Virus record (IMG/VR): IMGVR_UViG_3300045988_173544
Length of the DNA stretch: 64,000 bases
Reading direction: 5' to 3' (one strand)
From: a virus
Shown: piece after piece, positions 4,989-44,044 of the stretch
Layout: each line of letters opens with the position of its first letter
How positions within the stretch are numbered: position 1 is the stretch's first letter
Program-made: the position numbers and the translations under genes
The notes under the pieces: generated by a model
Told to the model about the DNA's origin: nothing
The model's input: only the letters and a program-made list of their open reading frames with translations
The model's database searches: none

Positions 4989-5200
4989 GTCTGTTTCTCC
5001 TTTAATTAAGTACATATTTATTATAGCACATTAACATGTTTTTGTCAACTGTTTTAAGTCATATATGTTAAGGAGTATTAAGATTTATTACTATTAGAAA
5101 GATATTTTAACCCAGATATAAGAAAAAGGCTATATTCAATGGGGAACTGAATAAAGCCTATTAAGAACGATTTTAGTTAAAAAATATTAGTTTTGGGAGT

Positions 5201-27384: not shown

Positions 27385-28767
27385 TTATTTCTCTGCATAA
27401 TTCTTAAGGTTAATAGCAGCATTTTCATCCCTATCCATTACCATCCCGCACTTAGGGCACTTAAATACTTCATAACCTTTTTTCATCTCTTTATTCTTAT
27501 ATCCACAGTTACTACATATTTGTGAGCTTGCAAAGAACCTATCTGCTTTTATTACATTAACACCATTTCTTTCAGCTTTATACTTCAGCCAATCAAGCCA
27601 TGTACCCATACTTGTTTTCTGTATACCTTTAGCTACCTTCTTATTTTTCTTCATATTATTTATAGCAATATTTTCTACTACAATACTTTCAGGAGCTATT
27701 CTCTTTAATAAGTGAGCTACAGACTGCTTTCTATTATCTTCCTTAATATTCTCTATTTTTATCTGTGTACTTCTTAAATATCTTTCCAGTCTTCTTAACT
27801 TATTACTCTTTCTTAATCTCTTATTACCATAAGGAGTTTCTATATAATCATTATTAAGTCTTGCATGCAGCTGTAGTGTACTTATCTTTCTCTGTAATCT
27901 CTTACACTTTCTTTCATACTTTTTAACTTTCTCAGAAGTTGCAGGATTTAATACTTTAGTACCATCTGAAAGAGTTGCCAGTTTTCTACACCCTACATCT
28001 ACTCCCAATACTCCTTCTAAGTTTTGTAAGTTCAAATCATTATCTCTATATTCTGTTTTTACTGAAACAAAGAAATCTATACCATCTGTAGAAACTGTAA
28101 TATAATCTGCTAAAGTACCTTCTAATCTTCTATCCCAACCTTTTATCTTCATACCACCTTTTATTTTAGGAAGATATAACTTTCCATCTTTTATTCTTCC
28201 TACAGTAGTATAAGAACCTTTTGAAGACCATTTATGTGGTTTAGGAAATCCTTTAGCGTCAGCAGGGAATTTTAAGCTAGCTTCTTCCCCCTTCTTACTT
28301 CTCAGTTTTCTCTGCCTTTCATAGAAATCTGCTAAAATTTCTGAAGCACCATAATTACCTTTAGCGTCTTTCTTAAAATACTTCTCATTCCAAAACTTCT
28401 TATTAGCTGTATATAAAGCTCCTATAGAAGCCGGACTTACAACACAATCCAAAGCTTTTGCGTCACATTCTCTTAACCATGCATTTTCCGGAAGTTTCTT
28501 AAACTGTGTAAACTCCTTACTTATTCTTCCAAAATTCTTAATATTCTTTACTTTAGAGCTTGCTATATCATCAATATTTATATCATAATCTTCTTCATAT
28601 AATCCTTGCAATTCTCTACAGCCCCAATTATACGTAAATCTTGCAGCTGTAATATTTTTCTGCATTGCTGCTTTTTGCGCTTTATTTACGTGGATTTCTC
28701 TCTTAAACCCAATTTTACCTACACTCTCCTCTTTATCCTCTACAGGAGCTAACAACATTTCTTCCAT
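27385..28767 (-). CDS. tnpB: TnpB/Cas12f-like RuvC nuclease (IS605 OrfB family), ~460 aa
   Basis: RuvC-I GVDVG; C-terminal CSNCG...CPKCG zinc finger and RuvC-III DRDENAAINL; N-terminal FTYNWGCRELQ block; AGAGAGG RBS; dedicated promoter 28946..28974. Confidence 0.8.
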   Translation of the reverse strand: MEEMLLAPVEDKEESVGKIGFKREIHVNKAQKAAMQKNITAARFTYNWGCRELQGLYEEDYDINIDDIASSKVKNIKNFGRISKEFTQFKKLPENAWLRECDAKALDCVVSPASIGALYTANKKFWNEKYFKKDAKGNYGASEILADFYERQRKLRSKKGEEASLKFPADAKGFPKPHKWSSKGSYTTVGRIKDGKLYLPKIKGGMKIKGWDRRLEGTLADYITVSTDGIDFFVSVKTEYRDNDLNLQNLEGVLGVDVGCRKLATLSDGTKVLNPATSEKVKKYERKCKRLQRKISTLQLHARLNNDYIETPYGNKRLRKSNKLRRLERYLRSTQIKIENIKEDNRKQSVAHLLKRIAPESIVVENIAINNMKKNKKVAKGIQKTSMGTWLDWLKYKAERNGVNVIKADRFFASSQICSNCGYKNKEMKKGYEVFKCPKCGMVMDRDENAAINLKNYAEK

Positions 28768-28945
28768 ATTACCTCTCTTAATAATTTTCAGATGTAACAA
28801 AGGGAGAAGAGTCAGAGGTAAAAATTCTCCAAGGTAAAAATATTGTAAAAACCCTTAGAGAAGAAAAATAACATTTAACACATAATAAAGTCCCAACTCT
28901 TCCCCTGTGTTACACATCTAAAATCGTTCCTATCTTTATGTATCT

Positions 28946-29534: not shown

Positions 29535-30362
29535 TTATTTAGTATAGAAGCTCTTTAAAGCATTCTTAGTTACTTTCCTGAGACCACTTAAAGCGTCTTT
29601 GAAAGACATTGTGTCAGAAAAAGTATTTTCTATGGACTCTGCCGGAGTTCCTAATTCTATGTTGATTGTTTCCGGAGAGCTTCCTCCATAAACTGTTTCT
29701 TTTCTTAGAGAAGGAACTTTAGCTACTGTGAAGTCTTTTAAGACATATAGAAGAACATCGTCTTCTGTATTATAAGTTGCTACTAAATCTCCTTCCACAG
29801 AATAAAGAGACAGTGGACCCCAAGAAGTTTTAGCATTCCCCCAAGGACTTAAATCATCTCTTGTAACCATTCCACGGAACCTTAAAGAAGTTCTTGTAAT
29901 AAGCGTGCTCTGGCTATCATAAGATACTTGAATAAGTTTCCATGCCTGTAATCTACATAAAGCCGTCTCAAGCATTTTTCTTGAGTTGGGGATAGTTCCA
30001 AGCATTGAAGATAACATAAATGTTATATCACCTATGGTATATGTTGTTCCCGGAGTTAATATCCCTGATAAATAACCTTCAAACGTTACATACCCAAACA
30101 TTGGTTCTGATACAGGGAAATAGTTAGGGTTATACAGCATAGGTATAAATATATTAAGTCCTTGTTCTCTAGGGTCTTCTATATCTCTGAATGCTAAATC
30201 CCATTCTTTCTGAGACTTCTTATTAATAGAATTTACGGAACCTATAGATTTCTGTAATTCAACAGCTCTGCCTGAGTGAGCTTCATTACATCTTTTGTTA
30301 AACTCATCTAGTGGCATACCATTGATATACGTAATTCCATCAATAACTTCCTTAGCCATCAA
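29535..30362 (-). CDS. hypothetical protein (275 aa)
   Basis: ORF. Confidence 0.55.
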   Translation of the reverse strand: MMAKEVIDGITYINGMPLDEFNKRCNEAHSGRAVELQKSIGSVNSINKKSQKEWDLAFRDIEDPREQGLNIFIPMLYNPNYFPVSEPMFGYVTFEGYLSGILTPGTTYTIGDITFMLSSMLGTIPNSRKMLETALCRLQAWKLIQVSYDSQSTLITRTSLRFRGMVTRDDLSPWGNAKTSWGPLSLYSVEGDLVATYNTEDDVLLYVLKDFTVAKVPSLRKETVYGGSSPETINIELGTPAESIENTFSDTMSFKDALSGLRKVTKNALKSFYTK

Positions 30363-30675
30363 GGACCTCCAAATTTTCTTCGATTAATTCGTTTCTATAA
30401 TCATTTATTTCTTCAACAGCTTCATCAAAATCCTCAATAAGCTGTGAAACTATTATCTTGTATTCTCTTTGAGCTACTACTTCTTCATTATCCTCAAAGA
30501 ATACTCTAGCAAGTGTATCACTATGAGCGTCTTTGATGAGTATTTCACATTGTTTCGTAGCTTTGTTTTGGAGGAGTACTACGCCTGCGATAGAATTTTT
30601 ATCTATTACGCAGAACTGAAATTTTTCCGGTATATTAATTATTAAGAATTCTTCGTCCATTATATTCCCCACCAT
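30352..30675 (-). CDS. hypothetical acidic protein (107 aa)
   Basis: ORF. Confidence 0.5.
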   Translation of the reverse strand: MVGNIMDEEFLIINIPEKFQFCVIDKNSIAGVVLLQNKATKQCEILIKDAHSDTLARVFFEDNEEVVAQREYKIIVSQLIEDFDEAVEEINDYRNELIEENLEVLDG

Positions 30676-31235
30676 TCAGATGTATCAGAATTATGCTCCA
30701 AGGATTGATAAATACTATCCATTATCTTAAAGAACTTTCTTACATCTCCTTGAGTCCATGAAGATACAGAATTAACCCAGGATTTAGTGCTTTGAGAAGT
30801 TCTTCTAATATTTTCAGGAATTTCTGAAGAGCAAAGTAAATCATTTAATCTCTTCCATAGATTATCTAAAGATTTATTGTAGTCTATTTTACCGGAAGAC
30901 TGGCTGTATACATCTTCGAAAGTTACTTGTTTATAAGATGTTTCTTCTGGAGTATCATCCTCGATACATATTTCATTATTAGAAGTTTCATAGCTGTTAT
31001 CTGAGCAATCTTCTACAGCGATAGGTATATCACTTAAATACTCACTTAAAGAGAAATTTGGAAGGTCTGGAATTTCTGAATAAGATGAATTATTCCAATT
31101 TATTTTAGTATCCGTAACATCCATACGGTTTACTTTAAGTCTGCGTTCTAAGTTTTCTATAGCTCCTGCCATTGCTTGGACTCCTTTGATTGCATTATTT
31201 GCTGCTTCTGTTAATTCTGAAAATGCTTCGTTCAT
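30660..31235 (-). CDS. hypothetical protein (191 aa)
   Basis: ORF; promoter ~31265. Confidence 0.55.
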   Translation of the reverse strand: MNEAFSELTEAANNAIKGVQAMAGAIENLERRLKVNRMDVTDTKINWNNSSYSEIPDLPNFSLSEYLSDIPIAVEDCSDNSYETSNNEICIEDDTPEETSYKQVTFEDVYSQSSGKIDYNKSLDNLWKRLNDLLCSSEIPENIRRTSQSTKSWVNSVSSWTQGDVRKFFKIMDSIYQSLEHNSDTSEWWGI

Positions 31236-31340
31236 ACTGTTATTATATCATGTTTTAGTAATTTTGTCAACTTTTTCATAAAGTAATCCCCTCGAATTCG
31301 AGGGGATTAAGTTCACATTGATAGTATATGGAGTATAAAA

Positions 31341-32606
31341 TTACTTATCTTTAGAGTTTGTTAACTTAGAAAGAACTCCATCAACTAACTCTTCTCCAAC
31401 AGGAGTTGATTTGAGAGCTTCTAACAAACTACCTATATTTAAGCCATTCTGAGAGCTAAATACCCCAGCTGCTTTGTTAACGCCATCAGTAACATTTCCG
31501 GCATTTGCAAATATCTTAATATCTGCTTTACCAAGATTTCTAGCTTGCTCTTTACCAACTTCAGCGAGAGCTTCAACTTTCTTCTGATTGATAAGGAATT
31601 CTTGGTACTCTTTATTTTCACCAATTTTCTGAGCAAGTTCAATCTGACCGGCAACATTCGCAACTTCAAGAAGTTTCTTAGCTTCAGCGTCAGCTTTACC
31701 TTTAAGTTCAGTACCTTTAGCATTATTTGTAGCAACTTTCAATTCAGCGTCAGCGTTAAGTTCAACTTCCTGTTTAGAAGCTTCAGCATTAAGAATTTTA
31801 ACATTCTTATCAGCTGTAGCTTTAGCAACTGCGGCTTCAGCATTAACTTCAATAACGTTTTTCTCACCTTCAGCTTTAACAACATTAGCTTGTTTTTCAA
31901 TTTCAGCTGCATTAACTTCGTTAACTCTTTTAACTTCCATCTGTTTTTCAGCTGTTAACTTAGCCTGCTCTTGAACTTTCTGTTTAGCTTCTTCTTGAGC
32001 AATACCAATTTCCTGTTCTACCTTAGCTTGTCTTAAACCAACTTCTTGACGAGCTTCTTGTTGACGAAGTTTAATATCTTTTTCTGCTGAAATTTCAGCT
32101 TCATTAGCTTGTCTCATATTTAAAGCAACTGTAGTACGACTTTCCATCTCAATCTGAGATTTCTTCTTAGCCATGATGTTTTCAACAACCTCAGAACCCT
32201 TAGCGTCACTAACATTCATTAATTCAATGTTCTTAACAACACGTACGCCCCATTCTTTAAGCTGTTCTGAAACTTCGTCTGTAAATTGTCTACCGTATTT
32301 GCTTCTTTCGCACATGATTAATTCAATATCTTCTTTAGCGAGGATAGAACGTGCGGCACCCTGAACAATACCTAACAACTGTTTTACAAGTTCATCTTGA
32401 TTAGATATACGTTGAGCTGCTAATAACGGATTGTCTACTCTGAAAAATGCTTTAATATCTACTACAAAAGGTGTTTTATCCTTGTCATAAGCTTCGTAAG
32501 TAAACAGGTCAATATCAAAAATTTTAGTTGACATCTTAGTTACTGTAACACCTAAATAAGGGACCCATTGAGGAAACTGGTAATAAGTGTTCCCTGAGCT
32601 ATTCAC
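31341..32606 (-). CDS. SPFH/band-7 (flotillin-like) domain protein with Ala/Lys/Glu-rich coiled-coil C-terminus; an in-frame upstream TM-helix ORF (32661-32744) is cut off by TAG
   Basis: SPFH-type block FVVDIKAFFRVDNPLLAAQRI plus long AEKQ-repeat coiled coil; 28-codon MSILIIGGAVLFFCIVVILSLRR ORF with strong AAGGAGA RBS is in the same frame. Confidence 0.65.
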   Translation of the reverse strand: MNSSGNTYYQFPQWVPYLGVTVTKMSTKIFDIDLFTYEAYDKDKTPFVVDIKAFFRVDNPLLAAQRISNQDELVKQLLGIVQGAARSILAKEDIELIMCERSKYGRQFTDEVSEQLKEWGVRVVKNIELMNVSDAKGSEVVENIMAKKKSQIEMESRTTVALNMRQANEAEISAEKDIKLRQQEARQEVGLRQAKVEQEIGIAQEEAKQKVQEQAKLTAEKQMEVKRVNEVNAAEIEKQANVVKAEGEKNVIEVNAEAAVAKATADKNVKILNAEASKQEVELNADAELKVATNNAKGTELKGKADAEAKKLLEVANVAGQIELAQKIGENKEYQEFLINQKKVEALAEVGKEQARNLGKADIKIFANAGNVTDGVNKAAGVFSSQNGLNIGSLLEALKSTPVGEELVDGVLSKLTNSKDK

Positions 32607-32811
32607 AATCCCATCACCGTAACATTTGGTAGTTTTTCCGGTACGTACAATATGCGCCTAGTTTGTAGGTACAATGCGGCGTAATGAGAGTATTACTACT
32701 ATGCAGAAGAATAATACCGCTCCTCCAATAATAAGTATAGACATTTGTTTTCTCCTTCTTACTTGTCTACTTCCTAACAAGATTTATAATAGCATGAAGA
32801 TTAACATTTGT

Positions 32812-32841
32812 CAACTTTTTTCGTCAAGTTGACAAACAGCC
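32812..32841. promoter_or_regulatory. divergent promoter region: perfect 10-bp inverted repeat TTTGTCAACT...AGTTGACAAA carrying a TTGACA -35 box on each strand
   Basis: between the divergent SPFH (-) and AdoMetDC-like (+) genes. Confidence 0.55.
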
Positions 32842-32924
32842 AATATCATGTTATAGTTTGACATGCTCTTAACAACTACATTTTTATATCGAGAACAAGT
32901 TTAATATAAGGAGATTTATGAATA

Positions 32925-33455
32925 ATGGAACATTATGCAGGACGACACTTAATAATTGATGGCGTGTTCCGCCCCGATAAAAAAGAATTATTATCAGACC
33001 GTACAACTATATCACAATACTTAGAAGATGTGACCAAAATAACAGGGATGACTTTAGTATTTCCGCCGATAGCAATGTCTTTCCCTTTTGCTGGAGAAAC
33101 CGATAGACTTATAGAAAAACTTGAAGCAGAAGGTAAATGTGACGATAGCGCTGTTTTCCAAGAGTTTAAGAAACATATACACCAGCGCAATACTATTGGT
33201 GGAGGAGTTTCAGCTATAGCTGTATGGGTTGAAAGTCACTGCACAGTGCATTCTTGGACTGAGAAAAATTACGTAAGTATTGATTTATTCTCATGCTCCA
33301 GTTATGAATATGAGCCGGTTGTTGATTTTACAAACAAAATATTTGGCTTGGAGAAAGCAAGTTACGTTGTCGTAGACCGCATGATGGACGGTTCCGCACC
33401 ATTAATCCAACAATTCACTCTGGATGAACTTAATAAAATATCTTGTGCGGTATAA
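32925..33455 (+). CDS. pyruvoyl-dependent S-adenosylmethionine decarboxylase-like (SpeH/SpeD class 1) proenzyme
   Basis: GRHLIIDG N-terminus and VESH..HSWTE..IDLFSC self-processing/active-site pattern. Confidence 0.55.
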   Translation: MEHYAGRHLIIDGVFRPDKKELLSDRTTISQYLEDVTKITGMTLVFPPIAMSFPFAGETDRLIEKLEAEGKCDDSAVFQEFKKHIHQRNTIGGGVSAIAVWVESHCTVHSWTEKNYVSIDLFSCSSYEYEPVVDFTNKIFGLEKASYVVVDRMMDGSAPLIQQFTLDELNKISCAV

Positions 33456-34293
33456 CAATATTATCTTGAGTAATTTCAGTCCAAGAAGTTCCGTCCCAAG
33501 AATACATCTTATTCTTTAAAGTATCAAAGTACACCTTACCTACTTCTGGTGAGGTGACTTTTTTACTAGGAAGTCCACCAACATATATGTAATTTTTGTG
33601 GTTATATCTCCCCGTTGTGTTAACGTCTATAAAATTGTCATGGAGTCGTTTGTAGAACTCAAACTGTTTCTCATAAATAGTTCCGGTGTAACTTATCTTC
33701 TGGAAGTAAACACCATAATCGAAGGCGTACATAATACTATTGGTTTGGTCATAGTATTTAATAGTTTTATCCAATGTATCTATATCGTACTCGAAATCTG
33801 TATGAGGGTCCCCTGGGATATTCATCACCCTGTCAACTATATACCAATCTCTCTCATCACTCCAAGCGTATATATCAGCATATTCAGTGGTTCCGTCAAA
33901 ATACAATGCGTCAGGGTTGAACTCAATATGTGTGTTTACAACCATTGGAGGAAGACCATCTGTTTCTATGTATGTTCCATAAGGTACATACCAAGGGTCA
34001 TCCGTATCTTTTATATCATAGAAGTATAATTCCTGATGAGCTGTATCCCAATAATATTTAGTTCTGTCTATATCTTCGTATGGAACCGCAATCCCCGGCT
34101 CATCCGGTATGTATAAAATATCGTTCTGAGTTAAATCCTTATTATAAGTATTATCATAGGCAATAATGTGAGCCAATGTATCCTGCCATGGCTTCTCACA
34201 GTTAACATCAAGATTAATATACCCTGGAGTAATAGGTATGGCGTCTATATCATTGGTAGTAAAACTATTTATTTCGAATTCGTTATAGTTCAT
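33430..34293 (-). CDS. hypothetical Tyr/Asp-rich protein (287 aa)
   Basis: ORF. Confidence 0.5.
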   Translation of the reverse strand: MNYNEFEINSFTTNDIDAIPITPGYINLDVNCEKPWQDTLAHIIAYDNTYNKDLTQNDILYIPDEPGIAVPYEDIDRTKYYWDTAHQELYFYDIKDTDDPWYVPYGTYIETDGLPPMVVNTHIEFNPDALYFDGTTEYADIYAWSDERDWYIVDRVMNIPGDPHTDFEYDIDTLDKTIKYYDQTNSIMYAFDYGVYFQKISYTGTIYEKQFEFYKRLHDNFIDVNTTGRYNHKNYIYVGGLPSKKVTSPEVGKVYFDTLKNKMYSWDGTSWTEITQDNIVIPHKIFY

Positions 34294-34386
34294 TAGCCCT
34301 GCTTACTTATAGTACAACTACCTAAAAATATACTCAAGGCAAGAAACTGTCTTGAGTAACTAAACATCGGAAAGTATAAATATAAA

Positions 34387-34461
34387 TGGTTGCGGGGGAG
34401 GGAGTTGAACCCACTACTTCTGGGTTATGAGCCCAGTGTGCAACCGGTACACTTCCCCGCT
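34387..34461 (-). tRNA. tRNA-Met (CAT), initiator-like: GGG/CCC anticodon stem, CUCAUAA loop, mismatched 1:72, CCA encoded
   Basis: manual cloverleaf fold. Confidence 0.7.
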
Positions 34462-34466
34462 ATATA

Positions 34467-34811
34467 CTAATTTAAGAATTCTTTAAAATCATACGACTTG
34501 TACATTTTTCGTTTAGAAGGTCTTGTCGGAGCTTCGATAACTCGTAAATAGTTCTGCTGAACCTTATAACAATAAGATGAATAAAGTTTCGGATTATCGT
34601 TTTTAAAACGTGTTTGGTCAAAGTACGTTCTAGGTTGTGTAATGTGATGAACTCCGTAATTCCCTACGGTCACTACATCACCGGGTTTTATATGTTCTTT
34701 TAAACGCCCTTGCAGTTCTTCGATTTCCCTCTGTAAGATACGTTCCTGTTCTTTGAGGTTTACGTAATGTTGTATGTCAATCTCAAAAGCGGTGCGTTCT
34801 CTTTCGTCCAT
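34467..34811 (-). CDS. hypothetical protein (115 aa; start at MDERERT)
   Basis: ORF trimmed so it does not overlap tRNA-Ser. Confidence 0.5.
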   Translation of the reverse strand: MDERERTAFEIDIQHYVNLKEQERILQREIEELQGRLKEHIKPGDVVTVGNYGVHHITQPRTYFDQTRFKNDNPKLYSSYCYKVQQNYLRVIEAPTRPSKRKMYKSYDFKEFLN

Positions 34812-34822
34812 AATAACCTTCC

Positions 34823-34911
34823 TGGAGGAGAGCCTGAGAGTTGAACTCAAGACACATTGTGCCCGATGGGTTTAGCAAACCCTCCTAAGGACCGCCCTAG
34901 TGGTACTCTCC
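34823..34911 (-). tRNA. tRNA-Ser (GCT), class II, CCA encoded
   Basis: acceptor GGAGAGT/GCTCTCC, anticodon loop TTGCTAA, long variable arm, T-loop TTCAACT. Confidence 0.7.
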
Positions 34912-35227
34912 TTACAGAAAAGTATATCATAGTTTTTATAAAAAGTCAACTAACTTGGTAATATTTCCCTAGTTTCCTAGAGGTAGGTATTTACTGGGTT
35001 ACTTACGCTTGTCGAACTGCCCAACCTACGGTCCCATCGCTCTATGTGTTTTGTACAAGATTTTCACTTGGAGCCAACTGCATGCAGGGGTTCTTTTAAT
35101 TCACATACTACCGGCAATCGATAGAAGGGTATGACCTCCACGGGGTGACAAAATCCCGCTTTCTCATACTATGCAGACTATTACCAAGTCAGTTAACCAA
35201 TTCTTTAAATAGATTAGTTGACCTTAA

Positions 35228-35303
35228 TTGGAAGGTCGTGTGGGATTTGCACCCACGCATAATGGTTTTGCAGACCACCTCGTTAACTACTTCGACAACG
35301 ACC
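35228..35303 (-). tRNA. tRNA-Cys (GCA), U73 discriminator, CCA encoded, T-loop TGCAAAT (G55)
   Basis: perfect 7-bp acceptor AGGTCGT/ACGACCT; anticodon stem GTGGT/ACCAT. Confidence 0.65.
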
Positions 35304-35583
35304 TAAGAGTCTCAGCATATTCCCGATTTTCTTTTCTTAATCTCTCAATAGCTAACTTCTGTAATAACTCAGCTTGTTCTCGTCTTAGTTCTTGATATTC
35401 TTGACAAGTTGCTTTATCTGACGAAATACAAGTATAACTTGAGGTTGTACCCGAACCCGTCTTAAATAAGATGGGAACAATCATGATAAGTAGAAATATC
35501 AATGCTCCAATAGGGAGTAACCATATTAAATCTACGCAACTATAATTAGGTGATTTTGTTCCATCTTTATTATCAATACTCAT
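35287..35583 (-). CDS. hypothetical small membrane protein
   Basis: ORF; hydrophobic core. Confidence 0.45.
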   Translation of the reverse strand: MSIDNKDGTKSPNYSCVDLIWLLPIGALIFLLIMIVPILFKTGSGTTSSYTCISSDKATCQEYQELRREQAELLQKLAIERLRKENREYAETLRSLSK

Positions 35584-36134
35584 TGTACTACCTCCTTTAT
35601 ATCTCCCTTAAAATCACGAGTCCAATTTTCCCACGGAATGTGACCTTCGGGAATTCTTTGTTCGGGTAGGGAAGCTTCGTTTAATTTACCTAATACGTAT
35701 TTCTTGTTATGGTCAACAGCCCGACATTCACAATTCCCTTCGTATAATTCAAGGAATGATGTTATTTTTCCACATCTTGGGCAAGTGAATACTTCCCCTG
35801 TTACTGTTAATGCGCAGCACTCTAGTAAGAAATCATTTAAAGTTTCAGGATACTTAAATCCCTCGAAAGACACCACCCGCCCGTTTGATAACCTTCTAAG
35901 AATAGTTCCGTACTCGTATGATAAATAATCCTCTTTCGAAGGGCGTGTATAAAGTCCTAAATCATCCCTAGACTCCATAAGTTTCTTTTCCCAAGGAGTA
36001 TGAACTTTAGAAAAAATAGCGTCTATGAGGTTTCTCTCGGATTGATTAAATAGACTACGTCTTTGTTGTCTTAATGTAAATAACTTATGCTCTGTTAAGT
36101 CAATCCGAGGTTGATTTGGAACTTGAACTACCAT
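35580..36134 (-). CDS. hypothetical protein with CPRCG...CEC zinc motif
   Basis: ORF. Confidence 0.55.
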   Translation of the reverse strand: MVVQVPNQPRIDLTEHKLFTLRQQRRSLFNQSERNLIDAIFSKVHTPWEKKLMESRDDLGLYTRPSKEDYLSYEYGTILRRLSNGRVVSFEGFKYPETLNDFLLECCALTVTGEVFTCPRCGKITSFLELYEGNCECRAVDHNKKYVLGKLNEASLPEQRIPEGHIPWENWTRDFKGDIKEVVQ

Positions 36135-36143
36135 TACACCCTC

Positions 36144-36917
36144 CTATATGAAAGGTTTTGCTATAGCAGTTCGCACATTTTTAATGAAACTTTTAAAGAA
36201 CCCTTGTTTCCTCGGTTTCAAAACATACTTGCTTTTCTCATCTTCAATAAGATTATTGATATATGTTCGTACTTCCTCTTCTGTTGCTTGCGGGAGTGAT
36301 ACTTCTTTTGCTACATCATCTTTACCCATTTGACCAAGTTCTTGTACAAGTTTTGTCAGAGTTAAGTCGCAGAATTCATCTTCCCAGTCAGCGATGAAAT
36401 AAAATCTGTCGTGAATATTCCAGATATTATTAGTCTTTTCTTCAAAAGCTCCAAAAACTATAGGGTCTCGCTGTCTTTCTTCTACTGCAATCTGTCGTTC
36501 TGTTTCTCCAGTATAATCAGTAAATACAACATAGAACTGGTCGAAGATTTTTAAAGACTTAAGTTCAGAAATTTTTTGAACTACTTCATCTGGAATTATT
36601 CTAGGGTATTTAGATAATTCAATAATTTTAACAACTCTACCCTTAACATTGTTCAAGTAAAAAGTAATATCTTCAGATAGGACATAAGTTGAAATCCCGT
36701 GTTTAAGAAGTTCTCTTTCTTTGGTTATAACACCATAAGTGAATGCAAGTCTTTGTACAACTGCATTTTGACCTACTGCCATAGCCTTAGTTAACTCCTT
36801 CATAATAATATTCTTGAAGGAAGTAAGAAAATCGTCAGACATGTCTAACTTATGCTCTTTAACGAAGTTAAAATATTCTTGAGGGCTTAATTCCTGCTTA
36901 ATGTTCTCATTGTCCAT
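36144..36917 (-). CDS. hypothetical protein (257 aa)
   Basis: ORF; promoter ~36965. Confidence 0.55.
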   Translation of the reverse strand: MDNENIKQELSPQEYFNFVKEHKLDMSDDFLTSFKNIIMKELTKAMAVGQNAVVQRLAFTYGVITKERELLKHGISTYVLSEDITFYLNNVKGRVVKIIELSKYPRIIPDEVVQKISELKSLKIFDQFYVVFTDYTGETERQIAVEERQRDPIVFGAFEEKTNNIWNIHDRFYFIADWEDEFCDLTLTKLVQELGQMGKDDVAKEVSLPQATEEEVRTYINNLIEDEKSKYVLKPRKQGFFKSFIKNVRTAIAKPFI

Positions 36918-37066
36918 GCTTGTTCTCCTTTATGAGAGAATTATATCACAAGAAAGGCAATTTGTCAACTTTTATGTAATAATGGTCTGGATAGCCGGCT
37001 CCGCCCCGGCGACAGAGGTCCCCAAAGCCCCTATGTTACTAAGCTACACTATATCCAGATAATTAA

Positions 37067-37158
37067 TGGAGGAGAGAGTGGGATTTGAACCCACGGAGGC
37101 TTTTAGACCCCGACAGTTTTCAAGACTGCTCCAATAAGCCAGGCTCTGGCACCTCTCC
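37067..37158 (-). tRNA. tRNA-Ser (TGA), class II, CCA encoded
   Basis: manual fold. Confidence 0.75.
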
Positions 37159-37165
37159 ATAAAAA

Positions 37166-37239
37166 TTCCCCCGCTACGACTCGAACGTAGGAAATATCGG
37201 AACCAAAATCCGACGCCTTACCAGCTTGGCTACAGGGGA
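37166..37239 (-). tRNA. tRNA-Gln (TTG), U1:A72
   Basis: manual fold. Confidence 0.7.
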
Positions 37240-37248
37240 GTATAAAAA

Positions 37249-37320
37249 TACCCGGTGCTGGATTTGAACCAACGACCTCCACTTTGTAAGAGTGGCATTC
37301 TACCGCTGAATTAACCGGGC
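37249..37320 (-). tRNA. tRNA-Val (TAC)
   Basis: manual fold. Confidence 0.7.
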
Positions 37321-37325
37321 TTGAA

Positions 37326-37400
37326 TGGAGCGAGTAGAGGGAGTCGAACCCTCGCCGTCTGTTTGGAAGACAGAAATCATAACCGTTAGACCACACTCGC
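37326..37400 (-). tRNA. tRNA-Gly (TCC), CCA encoded
   Basis: manual fold; anticodon loop CTTCCAA. Confidence 0.75.
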
Positions 37401-37405
37401 AAAAT

Positions 37406-37479
37406 CACCCTCGGCAGGACTCAAACCTGCGACGTGAGACTTAGAAGGTCCCTGTTCTATTCATCTGAACTACGAGGGT
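37406..37479 (-). tRNA. tRNA-Arg (TCT), A1:U72
   Basis: manual fold. Confidence 0.65.
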
Positions 37480-37484
37480 TTATT

Positions 37485-37557
37485 AGCCCCCTAGAGGATT
37501 TGAACCCCTGACATCCACGTCCGTAGCGTGGTGTTCTTTCCGCTGAACTAAGGAGGC
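37485..37557 (-). tRNA. tRNA-Arg (ACG)
   Basis: manual fold. Confidence 0.7.
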
Positions 37558-37755
37558 TTAGTCTGAGTAATCCCTTAACTGTTCTAAAAGAACACGTTTA
37601 CCATCAGGTTTTATAAGTACGCAACCTTGAATAGGTTTGTAATTACAAGCATACCCCAGTGCGTCTGCCTTAGCATGGCATTCCCAATTACTCATAAATA
37701 CGCCAAGTCCTAAAACCAAGAGGACTGTTATTACAATCAAATTAAACTCTGCCAT
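37558..37755 (-). CDS. small membrane protein (65 aa)
   Basis: ORF with TM helix. Confidence 0.45.
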   Translation of the reverse strand: MAEFNLIVITVLLVLGLGVFMSNWECHAKADALGYACNYKPIQGCVLIKPDGKRVLLEQLRDYSD

Positions 37756-37763
37756 AATTTACC

Positions 37764-38057
37764 TCATTTATCTTCCTGAGGTGGAAATATCCAATCGTAC
37801 ACTGTATTAACTATTTTTAAAGGTAGAAATAAGAACCCTAAAATTAGTGCAAAAGGCTGCGCAAAATTTAAGAATTCTTCCGGACTCATTCCAGTGAGTA
37901 AATAAACTTCGTGGAATAAATCCTCGTTTTTCTCTACATATTCATCTATGTTGTTGAGCTTCCTTTTCAGAAGACACCAACAAATAATCCCTGAAATTAT
38001 GTAATAGTATAGAAAATACATTAACTGAGTTCCCACAGTAGATAATTCAATACCCAT
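37764..38057 (-). CDS. small membrane protein (97 aa, 2 TM)
   Basis: ORF; promoter ~38085. Confidence 0.5.
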   Translation of the reverse strand: MGIELSTVGTQLMYFLYYYIISGIICWCLLKRKLNNIDEYVEKNEDLFHEVYLLTGMSPEEFLNFAQPFALILGFLFLPLKIVNTVYDWIFPPQEDK

Positions 38058-38106
38058 AGCTCTATGTTAGCATATTTTTGAAGATTTGTCAACTTTTTAG
38101 AAATAA

Positions 38107-38182
38107 TGCCCAAGACTGGAGTCGAACCAGCAAATGTCGCAGGGTCTAAACCTACCGCCTTTACCAATTTGGCAACTCGGGC
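38107..38182 (-). tRNA. tRNA with anticodon TAG (decodes CUA, Leu) but a class-I-like 7-nt variable region
   Basis: manual fold; canonical acceptor, D and T arms. Confidence 0.55.
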
Positions 38183-38188
38183 TTTTAT

Positions 38189-38273
38189 TAGGCATGACTG
38201 GAGTCGAACCAGCATTGTTTCTAATGTGATGGATTTTAAGTCCATTGCGTTTCACCAATTTCGCCACATGCCC
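38189..38273 (-). tRNA. tRNA-Leu (TAA), class II
   Basis: manual fold; long variable arm. Confidence 0.75.
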
Positions 38274-38461
38274 TTAAATATCATACAATAGGATTACTTG
38301 AGTACCTATATCTCTCTTCCCAGGTATATGTGCTTACCTAGGGTAGTTTTAAGAGTGTTTTCTTCTGCCCATACTGAAATCTTACCAACTACAAATCTAT
38401 TTTCCAGTAGCAACGGATATTTATGCAGACAAGTTATTCGTTAAACTATGTATGATAATGG

Positions 38462-38534
38462 TGAGTGCAGAAAGGTTTGAACTTTCACCTTGTATCTTAA
38501 AAGGATACTGCTCTACCAATTGAGCTATACACTC
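38462..38534 (-). tRNA. tRNA-Lys (TTT)
   Basis: manual fold. Confidence 0.7.
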
Positions 38535-38541
38535 ATTTTAA

Positions 38542-38618
38542 TGGTGGCTCCGGTTAGATTTGAACTAACGACGCTAGCCTCTTCAGGGCTACGCTCTACC
38601 CGACTGAGCTACAGAGCC
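38542..38618 (-). tRNA. tRNA-Phe (GAA), CCA encoded
   Basis: manual fold. Confidence 0.75.
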
Positions 38619-38939
38619 TCATAGACAACTTTTACAAGCATTTCCACCGCCGTGTTTCACGCACTCCGCATACGCATTTTGTTTTAAAATATCTTTAAAA
38701 CGGTCATAATCTTTATAACAATCATTACGATTACTGTAATAAAGACGTGAAATATCAGTACCGTATAACCTAATAAACATAGGGTCAAAAACCCCGGAAT
38801 TACCGCAATAACAAGCTGCCCCAACAATATTAGAAGTTTTAACAACTGTTATACCATCGTCATGTGCTTCAAATATAGTACTTTGCGCTAATACAGGGAC
38901 TGTATATAAAAATAACATAAGTATTAAAAATTTCTTCAT
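38619..38939 (-). CDS. secreted Cys-rich protein with signal peptide (106 aa)
   Basis: ORF; MKKFLILMLFLYTVPVLA signal-like N-terminus. Confidence 0.5.
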   Translation of the reverse strand: MKKFLILMLFLYTVPVLAQSTIFEAHDDGITVVKTSNIVGAACYCGNSGVFDPMFIRLYGTDISRLYYSNRNDCYKDYDRFKDILKQNAYAECVKHGGGNACKSCL

Positions 38940-38959
38940 TATGTAATCCTCTTTAAATA

Positions 38960-39031
38960 CGCAGGTTGCATGAATTGAACATGCGACTCGTAGTTTTGGA
39001 GACTAGAATTTTACCGCTAAACTAAACCTGC
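38960..39031 (-). tRNA. tRNA-Trp (CCA), with a C:C mismatch at 27:43
   Basis: manual fold; perfect acceptor GCAGGTT/AACCTGC and T-stem GCATG/CATGC. Confidence 0.55.
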
Positions 39032-39270
39032 ATGTTATTCTTTAATCTAGGACACCAATCCGGTATCGGTAGTTCTTTGTAAGTTAAAGCAGACCTTAAA
39101 ATTGGGTATCCCCAGTTTGTCTTAACTCCAGACTCTTTGAACTTTTGTACTTCTTCCTTTGAATACTGTTTGTAGTAGCAACAATATTTTGGTCTCCCCT
39201 GGAGCATGCCATTGTGTCTGCAATATTCACAATCATTACAATCTGTAATCTCTATAATAATTTTGTTCAT
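39022..39270 (-). CDS. Cys-rich small protein (start MNKIII)
   Basis: ORF trimmed to internal Met. Confidence 0.4.
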   Translation of the reverse strand: MNKIIIEITDCNDCEYCRHNGMLQGRPKYCCYYKQYSKEEVQKFKESGVKTNWGYPILRSALTYKELPIPDWCPRLKNNMQV

Positions 39271-39285
39271 TGTCTTCCTTGTCCT

Positions 39286-39362
39286 TGGGGTGACGGGAGG
39301 GGTTTGAACCCTCAACCGCCGGAACCACAATCCGGAGCTCTAGCCAATTGAGCTACCGCCAC
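39286..39362 (-). tRNA. tRNA-His (GTG), C73, CCA encoded, no G-1 encoded
   Basis: manual fold. Confidence 0.7.
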
Positions 39363-39394
39363 AGCTTTTATATAACCTTAGTGTAAATCCACAT

Positions 39395-39553
39395 CAGGTT
39401 ATGCGTTGTGTCCTTTAACTTCCTTAGGTTCAAAACTTCTTAACCAATATAAGTCCCCATCAGTAGGGATTTTCTCAGGCATTCCAAGTTCAATACCTAA
39501 AACTTTTTCCGGTTTCTCAGATATTTGGTCTTCTATAATAACTGTATTTGTCA
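39395..39553 (-). CDS. tiny ORF (~52 aa) with its own consensus promoter at ~39575-39605
   Basis: below the ORF-track size cutoff; promoter TTGACA-17-TATAAT. Confidence 0.35.
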
Positions 39554-39608
39554 TATACTTCATTACCCTGTAATTAATTATAACATATTATTATATATTT
39601 GTCAACTT

Positions 39609-39812
39609 TTAGAAAGTACATGTTGCTATCACTAATAGAAATGATATGATTGCAAGCACAAGCATAACTGTTTTAAATGCTTCGTATATTTTCCTCTTTA
39701 AAGTACATTTACACATTTCCTGAGGGCAAATACTCCAGTAATAGCATTGTTCGCACTTATGGGTAAAATTAAGCTCACAACGTTCAATCATTTTTATTAT
39801 CTCCAGAACCAA
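39609..39812 (-). CDS. small Cys-rich membrane protein (67 aa)
   Basis: ORF; C-terminal TM. Confidence 0.45.
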   Translation of the reverse strand: MVLEIIKMIERCELNFTHKCEQCYYWSICPQEMCKCTLKRKIYEAFKTVMLVLAIISFLLVIATCTF

Positions 39813-40038
39813 TAGAGTTACACATATACCCTACAGAACTCCTTGGGTAAATTTCACTATTTATCTTCTGCAATACTTCTTCCGGAAAATAAGAGCCTTT
39901 AAAATCTCCGCCAAAGAAGTATTTTACGTAATATCTAATTCCAGCTCTATCAATATCCATAGAGTCTACATATCCCTTAATATTTAATTCCTCTATAAAT
40001 ACCCTATCGCCTATGTCATATTTAGTATTCAGTTTCAT
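39784..40038 (-). CDS. hypothetical protein (84 aa)
   Basis: ORF. Confidence 0.45.
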   Translation of the reverse strand: MKLNTKYDIGDRVFIEELNIKGYVDSMDIDRAGIRYYVKYFFGGDFKGSYFPEEVLQKINSEIYPRSSVGYMCNSIGSGDNKND

Positions 40039-40284
40039 ATTATGTATCCTTTGTTTAAGAAATAATGGAGGGAGTTTTTTAATTGCCTTGCAGGAACCAC
40101 CTGCTACGTGCCCTCCTCACGCCGTCGAACGCCGACGGTATGTGCCTTTCGTGAGTCAGTATGCCGACTACCTTTCGTACTCTCGGATACGGAGGAATTT
40201 CTACTGCCGTCTGGTTATGTTTATTTGTTCGGGAGGTCGAAACCAGAGTAAAGGACCTCACCTGCTTTTGTGCAAGGTCTCCAA

Positions 40285-40374
40285 TGGTGGGTAAGGAAGG
40301 AGTTGCACCTCCAACGGCTTGTTAGGCAACGCTTTTACAGAGCGGTCCGACCAACTGGTATTCGGCTCTTACCC
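40285..40374 (-). tRNA. tRNA-Tyr (GTA), class II, CCA encoded, T-loop TGCAACT (G55)
   Basis: perfect acceptor GGGTAAG/CTTACCC; anticodon loop CTGTAAA. Confidence 0.65.
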
Positions 40375-40398
40375 ATAGCACCGGAAAATGCTGAAAAA

Positions 40399-40474
40399 TG
40401 GTGGAACTCGTAGGACTTGCACCCACACCCTAGGACTTATGAGGTCCCCGCTCCGCTGTTTGAGCTAGAGTTCC
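40399..40474 (-). tRNA. tRNA-Met (CAT) elongator-type, CCA encoded, T-loop TGCAAGT (G55)
   Basis: perfect acceptor GGAACTC/GAGTTCC. Confidence 0.65.
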
Positions 40475-40913
40475 AGAGTACGAGTATTTTACAACCCCTC
40501 GTCTAACTGGGCGGCGCTGGTTGATATTTTAATCTCCTTCATACAATGTTCGGGCATTGTATCGAAACTCAGTTTCCCGAAAAACTAAGCCTACGCAGAA
40601 CACGGTTTACACCGAAATGGCACATCTTTAAGGTATTGCCGAGTCGAACGGCTACCTACGTGGCTCCTAACCGTAGTTAGGCGTGGCTGTGAGCGAGTTA
40701 TGAGCCCACTCTGTGCACCGTTGCACTTTCACTTAAAGACAGGTTATATTACGGTTCTTTCACCCCGCTGTCGAATAACACTCAACGACCTGCTATATTA
40801 AAACCCCTAGCAGTGGGTATGCACCAGTATATTAACCCCTACTGGCGGGTTCCTCGGAATGAGGGTTCTTTCACTACAAGAACATTGTAGTATCGCATGG
40901 GATTGGCTACAAT

Positions 40914-40985
40914 TAGGAACGGAAGGACTCGCACCTTCAACCTCTGAATTATCGGTTCAGTGCTCTACTTTTAAGCTACGCTCCT
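40914..40985 (-). tRNA. tRNA-Ile (GAT), T-loop TGCGAGT (G55)
   Basis: manual fold. Confidence 0.6.
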
Positions 40986-41181
40986 ATAGCTGGTTAGGTG
41001 TACTTTTCGTCGAACGTCGACTTTTTTCTCGATTTTTCACCTCTTCCTCAGGAGACCAGTGACCCCTGTGTATACCGCTGTTTTTCACCTACTCTTCTAC
41101 CAGATATTATAGAAGTTTCTCTTATCCCTCAAAAAGTTATCTGCTCTCTTCCTGAGTTTAGGTATACCTCTAGTAGTTTAT

Positions 41182-41255
41182 TGGGAAGGGATGGACTTGA
41201 ACCATCTACCTTGGAGGTATGAGCTCCATGTTCTGACCAGTTGAACTACCTGCCC
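41182..41255 (-). tRNA. tRNA-Met or tRNA-Ile2 (CAT)
   Basis: manual fold; T-stem GATGG/CCATC. Confidence 0.65.
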
Positions 41256-41259
41256 ATAA

Positions 41260-41334
41260 TGGCTCCAGGAGCAGGGCTCGAACCTGCAACCTACCGGTTA
41301 ACAGCCGGGCGTTCCGCCATTGAACTATCCTGGA
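41260..41334 (-). tRNA. tRNA-Asn (GTT), CCA encoded
   Basis: manual fold. Confidence 0.7.
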
Positions 41335-41506
41335 ATATGACCCCGGTGTATCGTCCCGGAGATACGCATTCTTTCCAGCTAAGGAAACTGAAACCTTTTC
41401 CAAAACCCCGCCTATAGGAATGAAACAGACGCTTGTTATTAGAGCTCATAAACAAGAGGGACTGCAATAAAATTGCTTGGTACACCTGAGTTACACATCT
41501 TAAAAC

Positions 41507-41577
41507 TGCCTCCAGAGGGACTTGAACCCCCAAAGCGGGTTTACAAAACCCGTGTTTTACCATTGAACTATAGAGGC
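41507..41577 (-). tRNA. tRNA-Thr (TGT)
   Basis: manual fold. Confidence 0.7.
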
Positions 41578-41757
41578 AAGCGAGTATAACAGAATATGCG
41601 CAATAACTGTTATACCCTAGGTTCTTATTTCGGAATATACCTTAAAACAACCGGGGCAACGCTTTCATCTCATATAAGAGCGTAGGCTACATAAGCTCTT
41701 TCTTCCTTGTCACCTAGCGGAAATAGCCGATACTAGGTCTTAGTTACCCTAATTAAG

Positions 41758-41833
41758 TGGTGGAGACTAAGGGAATTGAACCCTTCCAGTCTGCTTGCAA
41801 AGCAGTCTCGCCAGCCTTGGTACATGAGTCCCC
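41758..41833 (-). tRNA. tRNA-Ala (TGC) with G3:U70 and CCA, but a non-canonical D-arm
   Basis: acceptor GGGGACT/AGTCTCC; anticodon hairpin CTGC-TTTGCAA-GCAG. Confidence 0.5.
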
Positions 41834-42822
41834 AAATTGGGAGCAGGTGCTTTATGTTTAAGTGTTAAACGTCAGAGCTGCTCCAGACAAACATCACTAC
41901 CTTCCTTATATCCCGCTCAATTGGCGTGGCGGTGTGTTCCTAGAGTCTTGTATAGCGCTATTCAACTCTAGCGAACACTGGTTATCCAAGATAACACCGG
42001 GTTTAAAATAAGGGAACCTGCCGAGTCGAACGGCTTACTTCCACGAATATTTAGTTAACGTAGTAGATATTATACTAATACTTAAGTGTCGTGGTAAGGT
42101 AGCGCTACTATAATCAGCAACCCTTTTCATTATTATTTACAAGAGCTCTTATAAATAACAACTAGCTGAAGGTTCCTATAATTAATCTGTTAAACAGGAG
42201 TTAACGGAATTGGACCGTCAATTCCTGTTTTATACTGACTCCGTCGTCAGCCTTCATTTAATATTATCTTCGCCCTTATAAGTCTTTTTATCTGTATTCA
42301 TGATACCTACTTAAATGGCGGTGGGTACGAAGCTCGAATTTGTTTCCTAGGAGTGACAGTCCTAAGTTTTAACCGCATAAACTAACCCACCTTATAAAAT
42401 GGCAGTTCGGGGTGCCAGCCCGCCATCCCGTCGGATGACTGGTACTTGTATCATCTCGGTATACAAGTCAACCGCTGTAACGTTTTCGACCATACAACAC
42501 ATGCTGGTTAAGGTTGTGTGGATTGTCAGGAAGTTGTAAACCAGCAAACTTCCTCCAAGTTACAGTCTGTTTTGAAACTTTGTAATGGTACCCCAGCACG
42601 GTAACGCTCCGAGTGCTCCGCTGTGAAAGAGCGGTGACTTAACTTTCTGTCCCCTGGGGCAAATATGAAACTGTCAACGTGCAATAGACAACACAATTAC
42701 ATCTATGTAATTATTACCATTGTCTGTTGTTTATCAACAGTTCCATTATATCATGGATTACATAATTTGTCAACTAATCTATTCAATTGTCAAAGTGCAA
42801 TTTTGTTCTTTTACAGAACTGA

Positions 42823-42870
42823 AACACCGCTTGTTTCTTCTATTTTCTGAGTAACAAGCGGTGTTTTAAA
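42823..42870. terminator. bidirectional rho-independent terminator (13-bp stem aacaccgcttgtt / aacaagcggtgtt plus T-run)
   Basis: perfect inverted repeat followed by TTTTAAAAAA. Confidence 0.65.
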
Positions 42871-43202
42871 AAACTTCGTAAATTAATAACTTTAAGTTAA
42901 TTAACTCTTGTTACTCCCACCAGTATTATCGTCTATAATCGCATTAAAGGACGGCAACCAGCGATAACCTTGTTCCATACAAGGTTTTACTGATGTAGTT
43001 CTTTCACTATGCAGTTTTGAATACTGATTGAGTAACATTATATCACCTTTTTATGTTTCACTGTAATAATATAACCATATAATAACATGAGTTAAAATAT
43101 TTGTCAACTGTTACCGAAAATTTTATTAAGAAATGTTAACAGGACTTTCTCATGAATAACTAAATTATATCTTGGAAGGTAAAAAAGGAATGAGAGGTAA
43201 TA

Positions 43203-43625
43203 TTGGAAATAAAGTCGGTCTCAGAAAGTGCAGTATCTTTTGGGTCATACCAGAACATACTGAAAACTCTTTATAAGAAGGGCAAAATGCCTCAAGTAAA
43301 GAGAGGTTTGTACGGGGATATTCTTACTAAAGACAACGTATCTTTGGAACATTTAAAGCCCCACAGCGAAGGAGGAAAAACAATCTTATCCAACTTAGCC
43401 CTTGCGTCTAAGCAGAAAAATAACGCAAGGGGAGCGAAGCCGCTAAGCGAAGTGTTGAATTGGGAAATGGTTAATGACTATTTATCTCAATTCAATTTTC
43501 GTATTAAGGGATTTAACGGTGAAGCTTATGCTGAAATGATTAAGAAGACTGTTGAGGAACTCGGAGTTATAAATCCGAAGGAATTGGCTAAGAAAGGTAA
43601 GAAGCATTTAGATAAAATAGTCTAG
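43203..43625 (+). CDS. HNH endonuclease (free-standing, homing-type) in the tRNA island
   Basis: SLEHLKPHSEGGKT...N...N..RG HNH motif; + strand. Confidence 0.6.
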   Translation: MEIKSVSESAVSFGSYQNILKTLYKKGKMPQVKRGLYGDILTKDNVSLEHLKPHSEGGKTILSNLALASKQKNNARGAKPLSEVLNWEMVNDYLSQFNFRIKGFNGEAYAEMIKKTVEELGVINPKELAKKGKKHLDKIV

Positions 43626-43642
43626 TCATTGCGACTAGACTA
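43618..43642. terminator. bidirectional hairpin tagtctagtc-attgc-gactagacta between HNH (+) and tmRNA (-)
   Basis: perfect 10-bp stem. Confidence 0.5.
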
Positions 43643-43651
43643 TTCTGTAAA

Positions 43652-44044
43652 TGGTGGAGGTGCGGATAATCGAAATCCGGTCCTATCCGTCCTTACAACA
43701 ACTGTTGTACAAGTTTCCTTTGGTTCATCTTTTCTGTCAAGTAAAAGGAGATTGTCAAACAAAGGTTACAAGAGTTCTCCATTGACACCGTTTGCTTTTT
43801 ACTCGTTACGTGAGCGTCTGGAACGATACAGATTACTTTACGGGACTCACCGATGGCTGTGCCTGACCTATTGTAGATTACAGCTTAGTCTACGGGTCAC
43901 TTCTTAGGCAGCGATTGCTGTTCTGTAGCCGAAGTCAGCTTTGATTACGTTGTTAGCGTTTATCTTTTTGTACGATTTAAAGAGTTCATACGTCTCTACT
44001 TGCAATTGAAGCCAGGTTGCAGACAGTCAAAACCTGTCACCCCC
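43652..44044 (-). ncRNA. ssrA: tmRNA (ssrA), ~393 nt; tag reading frame 43904-43957 encodes ANNVIKADFGYRTAIAA-stop
   Basis: 5' GGGGGTG pairs with 3' CACCTCC (G3:U70) followed by ACCA; 3' domain GGAC-CGGAT-TTCGATT-ATCCG matches the tRNA-like domain of tmRNA; the internal tag ORF ends ...AIAA then TAA. Confidence 0.7.

Follow-up and report, generated by a model that had tools for sequence, protein, structure and literature searches.

A probable amber allele of a flotillin-like SPFH gene in a large, tRNA-gene-rich phage

The window analysed here is the whole 64,000-nt stretch of virus record IMGVR_UViG_3300045988_173544 (IMG/VR), and it carries on its minus strand a flotillin-like SPFH gene that is interrupted at codon 29 by an in-frame TAG. 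The explanation that best fits the evidence, to which a probability of roughly 0.8 is assigned, is that the TAG is a genuine and evolutionarily recent amber allele (Gln29, CAG to TAG), a tolerated knock-out or strong hypomorph that is served by no decoding mechanism. Ribosomes starting at ATG 32744 would then terminate after 28 codons and release a 28-residue hydrophobic peptide, and the anchored 467-aa protein would be lost or reduced to trace levels. Rare near-cognate read-through of the UAG by tRNA-Gln would restore the wild-type protein, and re-initiation at GTG 32606 behind GGTGAT would yield a 421-aa protein without the anchor. The gene would be accessory, and the TAG allele would be carried by one clonal lineage that is seen in several metagenomes. 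The features of the locus are given below, with the type of evidence in parentheses where one is named.

31341-32744, minus strand: complete flotillin-like SPFH gene of 467 codons including the in-frame TAG (sequence, open reading frames, Pfam, Foldseek)
32661-32744, minus strand: codons 1-28, membrane anchor and beginning of the junction motif (AF2 helix, homolog conservation)
32658-32660, minus strand: amber codon 29, CAG (Gln) to TAG through a C to T transition at 32660 (alleles of relatives)
32657-32661, minus strand: CTAGG in the window against CCAGG in relatives, the changed base being the inner C of a Dcm-type CCWGG site (alignment)
31341-32657, minus strand: 438 downstream codons with the remainder of the SPFH domain, the long coiled-coil helices and the C-terminal part, free of other lesions
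32604-32618, minus strand: possible restart site made up of SD-like GGTGAT (32618-32613), a 6-nt spacer and GTG 32606-32604 (duplex energy)
32786-32814, minus strand: promoter-like TTGACA-17-TATTAT with upstream TG, 11 of 12 positions (promoter scan)

The initial annotation had reported an ATG at 32744 with a strong ribosome-binding site, opening 28 codons that end at a TAG at 32660-32658, and these coordinates are exact. The ATG (32744-32742, minus strand) starts 28 sense codons whose product is MSILIIGGAVLFFCIVVILSLRRIVPTN, an AAGGAG ribosome-binding site lies upstream of it at 32757-32752 on the same strand, and the TAG ends this ORF at the position of codon 29. After the TAG, 438 further codons continue in frame and unbroken until TAA 31343-31341, and the frame joined from ATG 32744 to this TAA comprises 467 codons with the TAG counted. 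The downstream SPFH ORF had been described as opening at GTG 32606 in the same frame, 19 codons past the stop; the frame is correct, the GTG being codon 47 of the joined gene, and the distance is 17 codons. The predicted expression signals (promoter-like site and ribosome-binding site) are intact in the TAG allele.

An S-adenosylmethionine decarboxylase-like gene (32925-33455, plus strand; PF02675) is divergent from the SPFH gene. It encodes 176 aa, is conserved in all examined relatives, and scored 55.5 bits against TIGR03330 (NCBIfam), which is under the cut-off of 75.65. The intergenic region between the two genes (32786-32857) contains two near-consensus extended -10 promoters in opposite directions, and the TTGACA boxes of these promoters form a 13-bp inverted repeat (32838-32805) that may be a shared operator.

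Membership of the joined protein in the SPFH superfamily was assessed by profile, sequence, and structure comparisons. The Band_7 profile (Pfam PF01145) matched residues 24-205 with 46.3 bits against a cut-off of 23.6 (E 6.3e-12) and was present in all close homologs, and PH stomatin was matched by phmmer at 4e-08. In the AF2 model, which is that of a monomer, the pLDDT was 80-93 across residues 1-230 and 83-93 in the N-terminal 180 residues. The proposal that the 28-codon ORF encodes the N-terminal transmembrane helix of an SPFH protein agrees with this model, in which a transmembrane helix at residues 2-20 (pLDDT 87-89) is followed directly by strands 22-24, 29-34, 39-42, and 53-55 of the SPFH fold and then by long helices at 186-281 and 291-374; codon 29 is the first residue of strand 29-34. 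Foldseek searches against the PDB returned the flotillin complex (9l3g and 9bq2), stomatin, prohibitin, HflK/C, and QmcA, all with a probability of 1.00, and the flotillin match (E 4.9e-12) was a full-length alignment of approximately 420-445 columns. Based on the Band_7 match, the homologs, the AF2 fold, and the Foldseek matches, the protein was classified as a flotillin-like SPFH scaffold, and the normal allele would encode a single 467-aa protein with a transmembrane helix at 2-20, an SPFH domain at approximately 22-180, and long coiled-coil helices.

This order of N-terminal anchor, SPFH domain, and long coiled-coil is shared with the flotillin, FloT, and YqiK proteins. Although its architecture resembles that of flotillin, the joined protein does not qualify as a FloT ortholog, as it scored 25.7 bits against the FloT equivalog NF058507 (NCBIfam), for which the cut-off is 700. 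In contrast to the bacterial flotillin-type proteins it is phage-encoded and far below that cut-off, and compared with the full-length chains of solved flotillin, stomatin, prohibitin, and HflK/C it is 14-20% identical, with at most 26% over isolated SPFH domains. Neither an NfeD nor an FtsH partner was identified beside the gene. Searches of PHROGs and PADLOC with the SPFH protein matched nothing, and consequently neither a functional category nor a tie to a known defence system was assigned.

Sequence comparison indicates that the 28-codon ORF and the downstream SPFH ORF are one gene cut by a point mutation. Their arrangement goes beyond chance because the Band_7 match begins at residue 24, upstream of the TAG, and because the homologs are continuous from residue 1. 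When annotated phages were searched with tblastn, 51 records were obtained, mostly from Vibrio Thalassavirus (T5-like, Demerecviridae), and each aligned in one piece with query residues 1-463 at approximately 46% identity. The ortholog of phage Brizo is a single CDS (gp105) with GAG (Glu) where the window has TAG, and an IMG/VR relative has ATG (Met) at this codon. More than 1000 homologs were found in a collection of 5.8 billion proteins, the best 120 of which were 452-525 aa long with a query coverage of 94-100%. Position 29 in an alignment of 44 homologs was occupied by E (35), Q (6), R (1), A (1), and M (1), and never by a stop. On either side of the TAG these homologs share the junction motif RR(I/V)VPTN-x-(V/A)H(I/V)V, with R22, H31, Y42, and G43 invariant and V25, P26, V30, and V33 nearly so. 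As is characteristic of the superfamily anchor, helix 2-20 of the ancestral allele joins strand 22-24, and the two are contiguous in 44 of 44 homologs; in the window allele the TAG separates the anchor from the SPFH domain. Comparison with orthologs had been recommended in the initial annotation, where a separate small ORF next to an SPFH gene with its own N-terminus was named as the layout that would speak against an interrupted gene. This layout was found in none of the examined relatives, the orthologs being single ORFs, and the lack of orthologs in the form of two separate genes favours a mutation. The evolved split gene, which had been one of the options, finds no support, as no relative has two ORFs and codon 47 is not conserved as a start.

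Close relatives of the window were then compared at codon 29. The top match to the joined protein (P0001) is 467 aa long, 99% identical, and has Gln at position 29. Two contigs encoding P0001 (L003 and L004) are approximately 97% identical to the window across 9-10 kb and both have CAG; inside the gene, 30-31 positions separate them from the window, comprising 26-27 synonymous differences, 3 non-synonymous differences, and the CAG/TAG difference at codon 29. The 90%-identity cluster has 33 members, and its commonest allele (P0123, on 31 contigs) equals the joined protein of the window except for Q29. Ten P0123-encoding contigs (L008-L017) all have CAG and show 14-64 differences from the window, of which 13-63 are synonymous and the other is codon 29, with dS up to 0.25. 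Together with three further contigs (L018-L020), CAG was thus read at codon 29 in L003, L004, and L008-L020, and TAG was read in the window and in L005-L007.

The last three contigs were found through the exact 421-aa ORF from GTG 32606, which is recorded on five ENA contigs. Those retrieved, L005 (a 213,670-bp scaffold, ERZ28659773 / SAMEA2467046), L006 (ERZ1690245), and L007 (ERZ1689342), come from three ENA analyses and reproduce the TAG; across the 1404 nt of the gene none of them differs from the window, and over 4.9-7.3 kb of flanking DNA the identity is 99.98-100%. Because one clonal lineage with the same TAG was recovered by different assemblies, which may share a cohort or individual, a random read error is very unlikely. 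Of the substitutions in the gene, the C to T change at codon 29 alone sets the TAG lineage apart from all 15 other sequences. When the comparison is extended to the surrounding 9.4 kb, 27 substitutions (0.29%) are found in this lineage alone, and the closest of the sampled relatives share approximately 98% identity with it. The relatives' sense codon is therefore one substitution away in an otherwise intact frame, as in a nonsense allele, and a recent nonsense mutation, the first option of the initial annotation, is supported by the near-identical genomes with CAG, the single-ORF orthologs, and this sole lineage-unique change. The latter, together with the undamaged downstream frame, suggests that, measured against the diversity of the species, the mutation is young. 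An undamaged downstream frame by itself fits a very recent mutation and equally well continued (partial) function. The phage genome is large (approximately 213-229 kb), rich in tRNA genes, and has a GC content of 35.8%. No DNA-level relatives were matched by megablast against INPHARED, and exact-pattern scans for the site in IMG/VR and in the JGI metagenomes gave zero matches, for which reason no allele frequencies were derived from these two sources.

Selection on the gene was estimated from the same sequences. The dN of 0 relative to L008-L017 is so by construction, since these loci were retrieved by exact protein identity, and the unbiased comparisons are those with L003, L004, and L018 only; the unbiased dN/dS was 0.03 relative to L003 and 0.007 relative to L018. 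Among the 15 non-TAG sequences, 102 codons are polymorphic for synonymous changes only and 5 have an amino-acid or stop change. On these values, the SPFH protein is judged to be under strong purifying selection in the phage species. Other disabling alleles were observed as well. L018 and L019, which are from two Logan runs, have TAA in place of CAA at codon 111 on a haplotype that differs from the window at 37 nt, L020 has ATA in place of the ATG start codon on yet another haplotype, and L021 has two single-base homopolymer deletions (codons 36 and 92) that are possibly assembly errors. Approximately 11 contigs are disrupted and approximately 99 intact, as counted for 15 listed of the 33 cluster members and with counts that are not independent samples. 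Judged from these alleles, loss of the gene is tolerated in the population, at least transiently. Given the very strong purifying selection a full knock-out should be costly, yet the TAG lineage has been assembled repeatedly. It is improbable that this reflects antagonistic selection, in which the gene would be beneficial in most hosts and a liability in some (for example as a defence trigger or through a superinfection cost), and the recurrent knock-outs would be escape mutants instead of drift. A first step towards TAG to Gln recoding through a suppressor tRNA outside the window is even less likely.

The best of the competing explanations, although we consider it unlikely, accepts the same mutation and holds that the gene is still functional. 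Initiation or re-initiation at GTG 32606 would yield a useful 421-aa SPFH protein, possibly beside a 28-aa membrane peptide, and the gene would effectively be split. The ribosome-binding site of this GTG had been regarded as weak, a view that the duplex energies do not support: GGTGAT, 6 nt upstream, gave -9.1 kcal/mol with the 13-nt anti-Shine-Dalgarno tail compared with -8.8 kcal/mol at the real start, and among 305 internal in-frame NTG codons from long ORFs of the window, no more than 3.3% reach this energy. Gene callers choose the GTG 32606 start (P0121, 421 aa); for a 397-aa JGI call (P0122), look-up returned no record. The short distance from the TAG, the wholly intact downstream ORF, and the persistence of the TAG lineage across several assemblies also favour a restart, and there is a general precedent in early lacI amber mutants, which make restart proteins from internal GUG/AUG codons. 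Re-initiation at codon 47 is plausible with an SD-like sequence in place and so few codons to cross, and since that sequence is a good one the TAG allele may not be null. The predicted 421-aa product, however, would be devoid of the anchor, the first three beta-strands of the model (22-24, 29-34, and 39-42), and the invariant R22, H31, Y42, and G43. Moreover, GGTGAT is encoded by conserved Tyr-Gly-Asp-Gly codons and is identical in the CAG alleles, and it is therefore regarded as a by-product and not as an adaptation. Codon 47 is variable in the homologs, where it is neither Val nor a start, no relative has a two-ORF architecture, and the TAA-111 and ATA-start alleles show plain disruption too.

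Far less probable is that the TAG is translated, either by programmed TAG to Gln decoding (code 15) or by suppressor-tRNA read-through, with the 467-aa protein being made, perhaps late in infection only. The ancestral residue is Gln, which is the code-15 assignment of TAG, and this large, tRNA-rich phage has a low GC content (35.8%) and, judging by the names of its source samples, probably comes from gut metagenomes, a setting in which recoding evolves (bioRxiv 10.1101/2021.08.26.457843). Stop-codon recoding occurs in Lak, crAss-like, and other gut phages. In the 64-kb window of the approximately 220-kb genome, to which the tRNA scan refers, ARAGORN identified 23 tRNAs and a tmRNA but no tRNA with anticodon CUA, a permissive Rfam scan of 30000-46000 added no tRNA, and no CUA tRNA was present at the loci of the relatives, the repertoire of the CAG lineage being the same over the shared part. 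These scans confirm the earlier statement that no anticodon-CUA suppressor tRNA is encoded among the tRNAs of the window. The initial annotation had also stated that other genes end in TAG. TAG is undepleted and terminates 18 of the 96 ORFs (19%) in a greedy non-overlapping set from the window. Conserved long genes are included, and among the 18 are an 893-aa ORF and a 728-aa RecD/Dda-like helicase whose PHROG alignment extends to profile position 740 of 743, and the TAG-G context of codon 29 is common to 6 of the 18 terminators. Read with the standard code, long ORFs of 956, 893, and 728 aa contain no interruption.

All same-frame ORF pairs separated by TAG in the 64-kb window were listed, and no other credible in-frame TAG was found. 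At 36146 and 13503 the two members of the pair are neighbouring genes, each with an ATG of its own and called separately in all relatives, and the pair at 18061 is low-complexity, off-frame sequence. General TAG/TGA recoding was also rejected, as stop-to-stop ORF totals rose from 19,406 to 23,568 aa with TAG as sense compared with 24,703 aa with TGA as sense, so that there is no TAG-specific gain in coding capacity. The TAG is rare and derived, every other strain having CAG, and CAG to TAG is simply the commonest path to an amber codon. Programmed amber read-through, which had been listed as an option at the outset and for which the stop and its context should be conserved, is countered by the CAG of other strains and the E/Q/R/A/M of the homologs, by the use of TAG as a normal terminator, and by the lack of a suppressor tRNA in the window. 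The decoding hypotheses are further weakened by the ochre and start-loss alleles, which cannot be rescued by amber suppression. Two related possibilities, a bypass of the T4 gene 60 type and pyrrolysine, were rejected without computation, since the codons directly after the TAG are conserved coding sequence that aligns with the homologs and since the TAG is rare, derived, and located where Gln or Glu is otherwise found.

Recoded gut phages show how such a system would differ. The case described by Borges et al. (bioRxiv 10.1101/2021.08.26.457843; PMC9523058) resembles the present one in having an in-frame TAG at a Gln position in a low-GC, tRNA-rich phage. For code-15 gut phages, a suppressor tRNA, depleted use of the reassigned stop at gene ends, and numerous in-frame stops within late genes have been described as defining (bioRxiv 10.1101/2021.08.26.457843), whereas none of these three hallmarks (in-frame TAGs, a CUA tRNA, and TAG avoidance) was found in the window. 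Here a single codon in a single lineage is concerned, with no suppressor tRNA in the window, with TAG as a normal terminator, and with no enrichment in late or lysis genes.

The window contains a cluster of 23 tRNA genes (34387-42391, minus strand) that covers 19 amino acids, a tRNA for Glu not being detected in it. Beside the cluster lies a full-length tmRNA (43652-44044, minus strand; RF00023, 95.5 bits against an Rfam gathering score of 47) with the tag peptide ANNVIKADFGYRTAIAA (ARAGORN), and a tRNA nucleotidyltransferase (CCA-adding enzyme) gene is located at 45066-46490 (PHROG 2244, E 3.6e-43). The tRNA cluster shows a presence/absence polymorphism: where the window has tRNA-Gly(UCC) at 37330-37401, L003 has approximately 745 bp (4670-5415) with an HNH-endonuclease ORF of 210 aa, and no tRNA-Gly was found in L003 with ARAGORN. 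A further accessory gene, encoding a TnpB-type RNA-guided endonuclease (27385-28800, minus strand; NF040570, 171 bits) with a Cas12f-like TNB domain, is disrupted in relative L016, where two ORFs of 50 and 408 aa result from a split.

The sequence context of the substitution was analysed with regard to its origin. Deamination of 5-methylcytosine at Dcm-type CCWGG sites gives rise to amber hotspots in lacI. In the alignment with the relatives, which read AAC-CAG-G at the site, the C to T change affects the inner cytosine of CCWGG (AAACCAGGC to AAACTAGGC), and an origin by 5-methylcytosine deamination is compatible with the data. Of the seven CCWGG sites in 10.4 kb aligned with a relative, five are unchanged in the window and a C to T change occurred at the codon-29 site only; C to T accounts for approximately 22% of all differences in any case. 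A systematic CCWGG-linked error or hotspot is not demonstrable with one of seven sites affected. The case thus resembles the lacI amber hotspots of Coulondre and Miller in the conversion of CCAGG to CTAGG at the inner C, by which CAG becomes amber, and differs from them in being a single event with no C to T excess at other CCWGG sites.

CCWGG occurs 25 times in the window compared with approximately 47 expected, an approximately two-fold depletion. GATC and GGCC are absent from the 64 kb (approximately 127 and 36 expected, respectively), and CTAG occurs 91 times compared with 138 expected. Such strong avoidance of palindromic restriction sites may hint at host restriction systems.

The least likely explanation, an artefact of sequencing, base-calling, or assembly in which the true base is C (for example a methylation-related miscall at CCAGG), could draw on the position of the altered base in CCWGG, which is prone to systematic miscalls on some platforms, and on the low coverage of two confirming contigs (2.6x and 3.8x by their names), but it is very improbable in view of the identical TAG in three other assemblies from different pipelines (ERZ28659773, ERZ1690245, and ERZ1689342), which also speaks against the sequencing error considered in the initial annotation, the CCWGG sites, of which five of seven are unchanged and this one alone shows C to T, and the ordinary, mostly synonymous transitions, with no error-like pattern, by which the window differs from its relatives.

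As an amber mutation, the Gln29 allele is ordinary in kind. Without a suppressor, classical amber mutants make a shortened protein, and ribosomes may restart at a GUG further downstream, as in the early lacI ambers. The likeness to the classical mutants (T4 and lambda 'am', and the lacI series) lies in a single C to T change that turns an early Gln codon into UAG and leaves the rest intact. Unlike them, the present case is a natural allele in metagenome assemblies, found with no laboratory selection, it affects an accessory and not an essential gene, and it implies no permissive suppressor host. The purifying selection alongside several knock-outs may conceivably reflect conditional costs of the gene. 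Three independent disabling alleles on a background of near-zero dN/dS are a mild population-genetic curiosity and do not point to a new mechanism.

For annotators, what gene callers report as a 28-codon ORF and a 421-aa (or 397-aa) "flotillin" ORF is best treated as two halves of one disabled gene and labelled as a disrupted allele, and the pair should be read neither as a small membrane peptide together with an anchorless SPFH protein nor as a sign that the genetic code is altered. Flotillin-like SPFH genes occur widely among large phages, from Vibrio Thalassavirus to metagenomic jumbo phages, and are under strong constraint there, and the natural knock-out lineages are ready material for probing the role of the SPFH protein in infection.
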